The notes: generated by a model from the letters alone, not told the origin. Counted from the first letter of the whole stretch, positions 1 to 1,138 are shown. The stretch: 63,951 nucleotides of DNA, filler included, from Circinaria calcarea (GCA_051942165.1; 4 parts of 4 records of this genome joined end to end with filler, not necessarily neighbours in it); one strand, 5' to 3'. Translations and numbers: made by a program.

Positions 1-1138
1 CCCTTCCTTCCCCATACAACTCCTCCCACGCCCTCTCCCCCTTGACCTTCTCCTCGCGCCTCTCGCGCTTCGTCCGCTCCTCCTCCTTGCGCTGCTTTTG
101 CAGTTTCTCGTTGGCGGCACTGCGGAGGGAGGCGAGGTGCGCGTCGCGGGATTCGCGGAGATGCGTGCTGGAGGCCGGAGGCGGGATCTCGGAAAGGGTC
201 TTTTTAAGGCGGTTAAGGATAGGGTTAGCGCGGGTAAGGATAAGGGTGCGTTTAGTCTATTAGGATGGCGGCCGTCAGTTGAGCAGGTAGGGTTAGTGGG
301 GGATAGGGGTTTACGGGGAGAAAAGGAGAGAGAGGGGAGAATAGGTTACCTTTTTGGGTTCGTGGAAGCTGACCTGGCCGGTTGCCATGCTGCCGTTCTT
401 GAGGAGGTTCGACCAGGGCGTGTAGATTATGGTGACGTTGTCACGTTTGTTGCCTGGTGCGCGGCCGTTAGTCATAAGCCTACCTTAGTAAATCCCCCCA
501 AAGGAGGTCAAAACAGCTATAGCTGGCGGCTTTTTTTTCGTAGATGGTTTGAGGTGAAGATGACGGGAGTTGAAAATGGACGGAGGGCAAAGAGGAACAC
601 TGATAAGGCAAAGATGGAAAAATGGGTTTTCCCACCTTCAATCGAGTTCGCCTTGGTAAGCTGGGCACAGTCTTCCACCAGCGCTGCCGGGATACTGTCC
701 CAGGACTGTCCCGGCTCAAGACGCAGGTAGACGTGGGCGCTGGAGAGGTTGTCGGCGTGAAACTATGCTCAAACCAGGAGCGTGTTGGCCATGCGCGTTC
801 ATCAACGCGCAGAGAGAAGGAGAGGTAGGGATTGGTGGATTCGATGTGTGCAATGAGCTCCCGAGGAGGTGAGGCAAGGAAGCATACCCTATTCCACGCA
901 ATCAGCTTGCTGCTCCAAAAGTACCAAAGAACTGAACAGCTCTGTAGAAGTAGGAGACTTGTTTACCATACATCTTCCTCCCAGCCATACTTGATTAGTT
1001 CTTCGTCTACGGCGTCGCTTTAGCTTTGAGGGTCGTAACCACGAGGAGTCATGATGGAGCTATACTCTCAAACTTGTCTTTACCAACATAGATAGTTGCT
1101 GGAGGATTTACAACGTTGGAAGTGTAATAGTAGACCAT
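1..1138 (-). CDS. CCDC25 / NFACT-R (DUF814) domain protein (yeast Jlp2-like); 3' end runs off the window
   Basis: Spliced translation [52 protein letters not shown]...[46 protein letters not shown] matches the CCDC25 signature. Introns are GT-AG and the C-terminus is a charged coiled coil. Confidence 0.92.

Follow-up and report, generated by a model that had tools for sequence, protein, structure and literature searches.

A probable one-nucleotide exon completes a conserved tryptophan codon in a CCDC25/Jlp2-like gene of Circinaria calcarea

We analyzed a window of 63,951 nucleotides of DNA from Circinaria calcarea (GCA_051942165.1), which consists of four parts of four records of this genome joined end to end with filler. 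The beginning of the window carries a CCDC25/Jlp2-like gene on the minus strand. The gene model that we built for it contains the following features.

1066..1138, minus strand: exon 1 of the CCDC25/Jlp2-like gene (73 nt), with the ATG at 1138 and an N terminus, M-V-Y-Y-Y-T-S, that matches those of the homologs
1007..1065, minus strand: intron after exon 1 (59 nt, GTATAG...CCGTAG), the removal of which restores K-F-E-N-E-E-L-I-K as in the homologs
967..1006, minus strand: exon 2 (40 nt), with the 3' end GAA GAT GTA TG, which closes on the first two bases of the Trp codon
970..971, minus strand: alternative in-frame donor GT inside the Val codon (GTATGG)
889..966, minus strand: first intron of the pair (78 nt), with donor GTAAAC, branch motif GCTGAT at 906-901, and acceptor AATAG
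888..888, minus strand: predicted one-nucleotide exon, G, the third base of the Trp38 codon
763..887, minus strand: second intron of the pair (125 nt), with donor GTATGC, CCAAC at 788-784 as a likely non-consensus branch motif, and acceptor CATAG
636..762, minus strand: exon 4 (127 nt), which begins TTT CAC GCC GAC (F39-H40) and encodes the core of the NFACT-R_1 domain
454..635, minus strand: intron after exon 4 (182 nt, GTGGGA...CACCAG)
350..453, minus strand: exon 5 (104 nt), which encodes the end of the NFACT-R_1 domain
257..349, minus strand: intron after exon 5 (93 nt, GTAACC...CTAATAG)
1..256, minus strand: exon 6, which encodes a charged coiled-coil tail and continues beyond the window start

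All five introns of the gene are of the GT..AG type. When the exons are joined with G888 included, they yield a continuous open NFACT-R_1 protein that reads D36-V37-W38-F39-H40. Exon 4 alone scores 38.4 bits against the Pfam family NFACT-R_1 (PF05670), above the gathering cut-off of 29.8 bits, over profile positions 37 to 75 of 112, and exon 5 alone scores 25.3 bits over positions 78 to 111. The named proteins nearest to the full model belong to lichen-forming Lecanoromycetes, namely, Icmadophila (148 of ∼200 residues identical), Trapelia (151 of ∼200), and Xylographa (153 of 209), and the top matches to exon 4 alone are proteins from Teloschistaceae genome bins (88 to 93%). The plus strand holds an open reading frame of 242 aa at positions 2 to 730, which is of low complexity and runs antisense to the 3' exons and introns; it is unsupported as a gene and is most likely an antisense artifact of composition. 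No Rfam match was obtained in positions 1 to 2400 of the window at E values of up to 0.1.

Exon 4 can be aligned to solved chains of human CCDC25, in which the F-H of the window pairs with F53-H54 of 7eoe_A and F49-H50 of 8woh_B. The histidine conserved in the family is H40 in our model, where it directly follows W38-F39. We take its counterpart in both chains to be human H41, assuming N-terminal tags of 13 and 9 residues and a corresponding numbering of the human protein. A preprint reports that yeast Jlp2 acts on stalled 60S subunits, where it frees the peptide from peptidyl-tRNA, and that this release needs the conserved histidine H44, with H41 as the orthologous residue of human CCDC25 (10.1101/2025.09.04.673968). 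The part of the protein that is assembled around G888 would, on this numbering, lie next to the catalytic residue.

The single base G888 is bounded by a canonical AG and a canonical GT, and both of the introns around it are complete. Our model reproduces, on the minus strand, the whole arrangement that the original prediction had placed at 763..966, from the end of exon 2 through the introns at 966-889 and 887-763 and the G at 888 to the TTT CAC that opens the next exon. Its claim that the G completes a TGG codon for tryptophan agrees with the translation, as D-V-W-F-H is open with G888. Also as it had stated, removing 966-763 as one intron shifts the frame, and a stop codon is met when the exons are joined without G888. 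A further claim, that only inclusion of the G both completes the tryptophan and keeps the frame, was right about the tryptophan but too strong about the frame: the GT inside the Val codon (971-970), used with the acceptor at 763, is also in frame and deletes exactly Val37-Trp38. G888 is needed for the frame and the conserved W together, with the caveat that the Val-codon donor keeps the frame and loses V-W.

The frameshift of the naive one-intron model could also be taken at face value, as a genuine frame defect in a decaying pseudogene, and it is the sole support for such a reading. The exons, however, are all open and highly conserved (148 to 153 identical residues over 198 to 209 aligned, relative to Icmadophila, Trapelia, and Xylographa), and the same layout is found at 64 loci (described below). 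A pseudogene is thus an extremely improbable explanation.

The 206-nt stretch of the window locus contains AGGGT once. At this single locus, the motif is only suggestive of an internal acceptor-donor junction, since the chance of finding one is ∼0.07 per such stretch. We scanned metagenome contigs with a query in which exon 4 was aligned with 19 homologous open reading frames. The scan matched 348 stretches, 296 of which encode a relative, and the best 80 of the 296 were analyzed. The upstream exon (L-I-x-x-G-x-x-x-D-V) was located in 77 of the 80 loci; in L008, L014, and L038, the DNA ends too early. The taxon labels of the loci, taken from the nearest named protein over 53 residues, are crude, and we used them only to call the loci diverse.

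Three states of the Trp/Phe site were present among the 77 loci. The intron is absent, with TGG directly before TTY, in 11 loci; one short intron follows an intact TGG in 2 loci (L072 and L076); and 64 loci have the out-of-phase layout of the window, in which TG is followed by GT...AG and then by TTY. These 64 loci contain 46 distinct intervening sequences, and every one of them (46/46) has an AG-G-GT that splits the stretch into two intron-sized parts. With the window included, AG-G-GT is present in 47 of 47 distinct sequences, versus 3.32 expected (∼0.07 each) from 2,000 mononucleotide shuffles per intervening core. Across the 47 sequences, the first intron measures 45 to 88 nt (median, 55) and the second 49 to 133 nt (median, 62). 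A second AGGGT occurs in L042 and L044; that of L042 leaves a second intron of 19 nt, and the choice in L044 is ambiguous. The loci share descent, so that 47 of 47 does not amount to 47 independent events, and single linkage at 70% identity gathers the sequences into 31 groups. On these comparisons, recurrence at the equivalent place in all 47 distinct sequences puts the presumed junction of the window beyond chance. The original prediction had proposed aligning orthologous loci for conservation of the AG-G-GT arrangement, and the alignment bears it out, as the layout is kept in orthologous loci throughout (47/47 distinct out-of-phase sequences, 31 groups).

A search of sequencing runs for the window listed the biocrust metagenome run X1 (word share, 0.06) and no RNA run. 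Contigs from X1 come close to the site in one case and cross it in another. An intron-carrying contig of 854 nt is 90 to 95% alike to the window and covers positions 17 to 457 and 532 to 883, which indicates that a close relative of the window fungus lives in the X1 sample. Its part over 532-883, about 92% alike, includes a counterpart of the second intron, so that this intron is homologous between the window and the relative; the contig stops at 883, 4 to 5 nt short of G888, and leaves the G itself uncovered. Many of its differences from the window are A-to-G changes on the plus strand, and its small indels are confined to introns. A second X1 contig, of 283 nt and from a different organism, is free of introns at the site, with the codons for D-E-D-V-W running directly into those for F-H.

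An assembly or sequencing indel could in principle mimic the arrangement in the window. The true sequence would then be TGG followed directly by GTAAAC, with a single intron of 204 nt and an internal AGGGT that is coincidental. GG and GGG runs are a common place for length errors, a stretch of ∼200 nt will not rarely have an AGGGT by chance (∼0.07 per shuffled sequence), and the contig of the X1 relative stops short of the site. The same "error," however, would be needed in 46 further distinct sequences from many independent assemblies, each with AG-G-GT at an intron-sized distance, and we find an indel scarcely credible on that account.

Outside the junction, the intervening sequences have changed almost completely. 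The identity of every other sequence to that of the window is at most 61%, which is the level of unrelated sequences in the permissive global alignment that was used. As the identity is at this level, the introns have diverged beyond alignment while the 5-nt junction stayed. A neutral 5-mer in an otherwise saturated intron would not survive, so the junction appears to have been retained by selection. The comparison shows, as far as sequences can, that the AG-G-GT junction is under purifying selection.

The other two states of the site show how the intron pair varies among the loci. In L072 (388-425) and L076 (161-197), a single phase-0 intron of 35 and 34 nt, respectively, lies between Trp and Phe. 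Such a site would be expected where the upstream intron is absent and its partner is kept; the converse state, with the upstream intron alone at the site, was found in 0 of the 77 loci. L072 and L076 thereby hint that the phase-0 intron between Trp and Phe may be the older of the two. The intron pair is missing from L012 and L015 and complete in L013. These three loci encode an identical upstream-exon peptide (L-I-K-F-G-W-D-E-D-V), and L012 and L015 are 91 to 94% identical to L013 over a 47-nt piece of the upstream exon. The comparison suggests a fairly recent joint loss or gain of the two introns. In a search for a cDNA/genomic pair, in which the 11 loci with an intron-free site were compared with all others, no match of at least 90% to a locus with the one-nucleotide exon extended beyond exon pieces of 47 nt. 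In L066 (1,149 nt), the whole coding sequence, from M-V-Y-Y-F to D-D-F-M, is one uninterrupted open reading frame, with no genomic partner among the 80 loci; it looks like either a transcript or an intron-less gene.

To characterize the intron pair further, we compared its splice signals across the 47 distinct sequences. In the window, the branch A of the first intron sits 13 nt ahead of the acceptor (GCTGAT, 906-901), and 39 of the 47 sequences have a YTRAY motif within 45 nt of the 3' end of the first intron. In the second intron, YTRAY occurs in 22 of 47, and 16 of the remaining 25, the window among them, have CCAAY. Counted over all 47 sequences, 21 have CCAAY in the second-intron tail (5.4 expected), and 2 have it in the first-intron tail (4.6 expected). 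It mostly lies 11 to 24 nt ahead of the second acceptor (L007, L010, L011, L032, L041, L043, L051, L053, L055, L064, and others). CCAAY may be a conserved non-consensus branch site of the second intron, with a count that is inflated by shared descent.

The two donors of the pair differ in strength. A G at +5 is present in the first donor of 29 of 47 sequences versus the second donor of 41 of 47, and the second donor is near the fungal consensus. The first donor of the window, GTAAAC, is weak, having no G at +5, and first donors far from the consensus also occur in relatives (GTGACA, GTATCC, GTATCA, and GTCCGC). The Val-codon donor of the window, GTATGG, does have the +5 G and looks stronger than GTAAAC. 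Position +3 of this alternative donor, the last base of the Val codon, is however C or T in 23 of 46 loci. With a pyrimidine at +3 in these loci, the Val-codon donor is not maintained as a good site.

The signals also bear on a reading without any microexon, in which there is a single intron and one of its two boundaries is non-canonical and lies one base away, so that the site reads either TGG followed by TA...AG or GT...TA followed by G-TTT. Arithmetically, either shift gives TGG TTT, and the mRNA cannot tell which G stays. Such an intron would need TA/TG..AG or GT..YA boundaries in every lineage, and it leaves unexplained the internal AG-G-GT, the branch motif ahead of it (39/47), and the +5 G of the second donor (41/47). 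Moreover, L072 and L076 show the second intron alone as TGG followed by GT...AG. We regard a shifted boundary as very improbable.

To see how the site is represented in public gene models, we examined 120 listed homologs of the gene. Among these, 31 models longer than 150 aa read D directly followed by F-H, without V-W, and another 31 longer than 150 aa read D-[VIL]-W-F-H; W is present in 31 of the 31 that read through the site. The remaining listed homologs are truncated N-terminally, are fused to neighbors (592 to 952 aa), or have an intron read through. The 90% cluster of P0036 contains both genome models and open reading frames on short contigs. None of its 12 named Chaetothyriales genome models has the W (6 read D-E-D followed by F-H, 2 read D-V-C followed by A-H-V-Y, and 4 are otherwise broken), and all three of its short-contig open reading frames do, as D-V-W-F-H (P0036, 980 nt; P0134, 935 nt; P0135, 1,002 nt). 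P0036 is the same as P0035, a genome model of Exophiala dermatitidis, at every residue except for the added V-W (identity, 0.991).

These three short contigs are most simply read as putative spliced transcripts. Some other open reading frames with the W lie on contigs that are longer than an mRNA (P0136 on 13,653 nt and P0116 on 3,785 nt), and these may be intron-less genes rather than transcripts. The deposited models of lichen fungi, black yeasts (Exophiala, Fonsecaea, Cladophialophora, and Capronia), Cryomyces, Coniosporium, and some Aspergillus contain systematic errors at this site. Automated gene models fail at the Trp/Phe site, and the original prediction was right that gene predictors miss such an exon: many public models lack V-W, and the intron-free open reading frames of related lineages carry the W. 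In the relatives, the predictors evidently use the GT equivalent to that of the Val codon as the donor, to judge from the residues that are deleted.

The same models could instead be read as correct. The gene would then have one intron of 209 nt (971-763) that starts at the Val-codon donor GTATGG, the protein would lack V37-W38, and G888 would be an ordinary intron base. This keeps the frame, uses a donor with the +5 G that GTAAAC is without, and is how the 31 listed homolog models longer than 150 aa, together with 6 of the 12 named Chaetothyriales models, are built. Those models are software output and not transcripts, however. The W is present in all 31 proteins that read through the site and in P0036, which otherwise equals the V-W-less P0035, and the AG-G-GT shared by 47 of 47 sequences with otherwise unalignable introns would be left unexplained. 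The pyrimidine at +3 in 23 of 46 loci shows a site that is not maintained, and the deletion would remove residues two positions before the histidine that, in the preprint's account, is required for release by Jlp2 (10.1101/2025.09.04.673968). Taken together, these points leave a Val-codon intron decidedly unlikely as the normal structure of the gene.

We consider it highly probable, from the sequences compared here, that the single base at 888 forms a true one-nucleotide exon in a CCDC25/Jlp2-type (NFACT-R) gene of a lichen-forming ascomycete, placed between two complete short spliceosomal introns. Removal of both introns would join TG, G, and TTT into the codons of Trp38 and Phe39, followed by His40. 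The branch motif and acceptor of the first intron and the exon base would all lie within ∼20 nt of the second donor, with acceptor and donor overlapping in AG-G-GT. Because the first acceptor and the second donor overlap within 5 nt, the two introns could hardly be committed simultaneously; with acceptor and donor so crowded in AG-G-GT, 3' splice-site factors and U1 at the next donor are unlikely to be accommodated together. As simultaneous commitment is hardly possible, the introns are probably spliced successively. Each unit is of ordinary fungal intron size, and successive removal could proceed by intron definition. If the first intron were removed first, the second donor would read TGG followed by GT; if the second were removed first, the first acceptor would read AG followed by G-TTT. 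Either order would give the same mRNA, and the sequence alone cannot give the order. Sequential ("recursive-like") splicing, as the original prediction had it, is a reasonable inference from the crowding of the sites.

Two other products would follow from other choices of splice site. If the first donor were joined directly to the last acceptor, the G would be lost and the message would be out of frame, with a premature stop; whether such skipping acts as a switch through nonsense-mediated decay, as the original prediction had proposed, is a matter of conjecture. With the Val-codon GT as the donor, the protein would lack V-W. As the first donor is weak and the Val-codon donor looks stronger in the window, a protein without V-W could arise also, or instead.

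One-nucleotide exons are very rarely reported. A paper of 2026 counts only two published cases, the first from a plant and the second from one genus of fungi (PMC12940212). The fungal case, which that paper calls the first in fungi, is the one-nucleotide exon of the P450 gene CYP621A of Fusarium, with the signature AGGGT (Nelson & Syed 2026, PMC12940212). As described there, CYP621A resembles the CCDC25/Jlp2 gene in having AG-G-GT with a single G between short canonical introns, inside a conserved motif, where the G is needed for phase, recurs in the orthologs, and escapes annotation pipelines (PMC12940212). The G of CYP621A stands in the middle of a Gly codon (PMC12940212), whereas that of the CCDC25/Jlp2 gene would be the third base of a Trp codon. 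The cases also differ in breadth and in kind of evidence: CYP621A comprises 20 to 24 genes of one genus with SRA junction reads (PMC12940212), and the CCDC25/Jlp2 case comprises 64 of 77 loci in ∼31 groups of divergent ascomycetes and is known from sequence alone.

The plant case is APC11 of Arabidopsis thaliana, for which passages of the original report describe a constitutive single-nucleotide exon proven with reporter constructs (Guo & Liu 2015, PMC4674806). There, too, an exon of 1 nt is flanked by two introns, and the cDNA annotation had been wrong (PMC4674806). The present gene is unrelated and belongs to a fungus rather than a plant, and the APC11 exon is proven at the bench (PMC4674806), whereas the CCDC25/Jlp2 exon is read from sequence. 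A full-text search of freely accessible papers found no paper on a one-nucleotide exon in CCDC25, Jlp2, or DUF814. The CCDC25/Jlp2 case would be the third published one-nucleotide exon.

Intron pairs in direct contact are known from filamentous fungi as stwintrons, with a "stwintron sensu lato" in Lipomyces (Fekete, Flipphi and co-workers; PMC7138796, PMC12403724). As these papers describe them in part, they share with the CCDC25/Jlp2 pair two U2-type units in contact, occurrence in Pezizomycotina, removal in two consecutive reactions, and a canonical intron that is left when one unit is lost (PMC7138796, PMC12403724). The external donor of a [D1,2] stwintron is interrupted between G and U by the internal intron, and no base is kept (PMC7138796), whereas one base between the units would be retained in the CCDC25/Jlp2 gene. 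No passage on a microexon or a one-nucleotide exon was found in PMC5639578 or PMC7138796. The window does not hold a [D1,2] stwintron, since one base separates the end of the first intron, at 889, from the GT of the second, at 887-886, and this base, G888, must stay for TGG to be formed. Stwintrons are the nearest mechanistic relatives of the proposed CCDC25/Jlp2 arrangement.

Recursive splicing in Drosophila and vertebrates uses ratchet points, zero-length exons of the form AG/GT that divide very long introns into parts and contribute no base to the mRNA. The CCDC25/Jlp2 junction resembles them in the juxtaposition of an acceptor with a donor, the 5' splice site being used directly at the new junction after the first reaction. 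Unlike at ratchet points, a base would remain in the mRNA, and neither intron is long. The window and the 46 related distinct sequences, without exception, read AG-G-GT where a ratchet point would have AG-GT, and a ratchet point proper is therefore not what the site holds.

It is conceivable that the one-base exon is an ancient regulatory device kept across classes and not a frozen accident. Splicing errors or regulated changes of splice site would then produce a substrate of nonsense-mediated decay or a protein without V-W and would tune the amount of active Jlp2/CCDC25. We think this unlikely. If it were true, the amount of a peptidyl-tRNA release factor would be tuned, for example, under translation stress, and the weak first donor and the recurrent CCAAY of the second intron would be the tuned elements.

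For the protein family, a practical consequence concerns the models in use. If the numbering of the histidine is right, models without V-W drop two residues immediately before the catalytic residue. In dozens of deposited models, Val-Trp is missing, or the protein is truncated or fused, two residues before the histidine that is described as required in the preprint (10.1101/2025.09.04.673968). Because the models are defective there, alignments and structure predictions made from them would be wrong at the active site, provided that the histidine has the role reported for it (10.1101/2025.09.04.673968). The gene that carries the probable exon is conserved and of housekeeping type, and the arrangement recurs in many divergent ascomycetes. 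It would provide a natural system for studying how an intron-definition spliceosome handles two introns that share the 5-nt junction AG-G-GT, and, since loci with one intron lost and with both lost exist, it bears on how such a junction originates and is lost.
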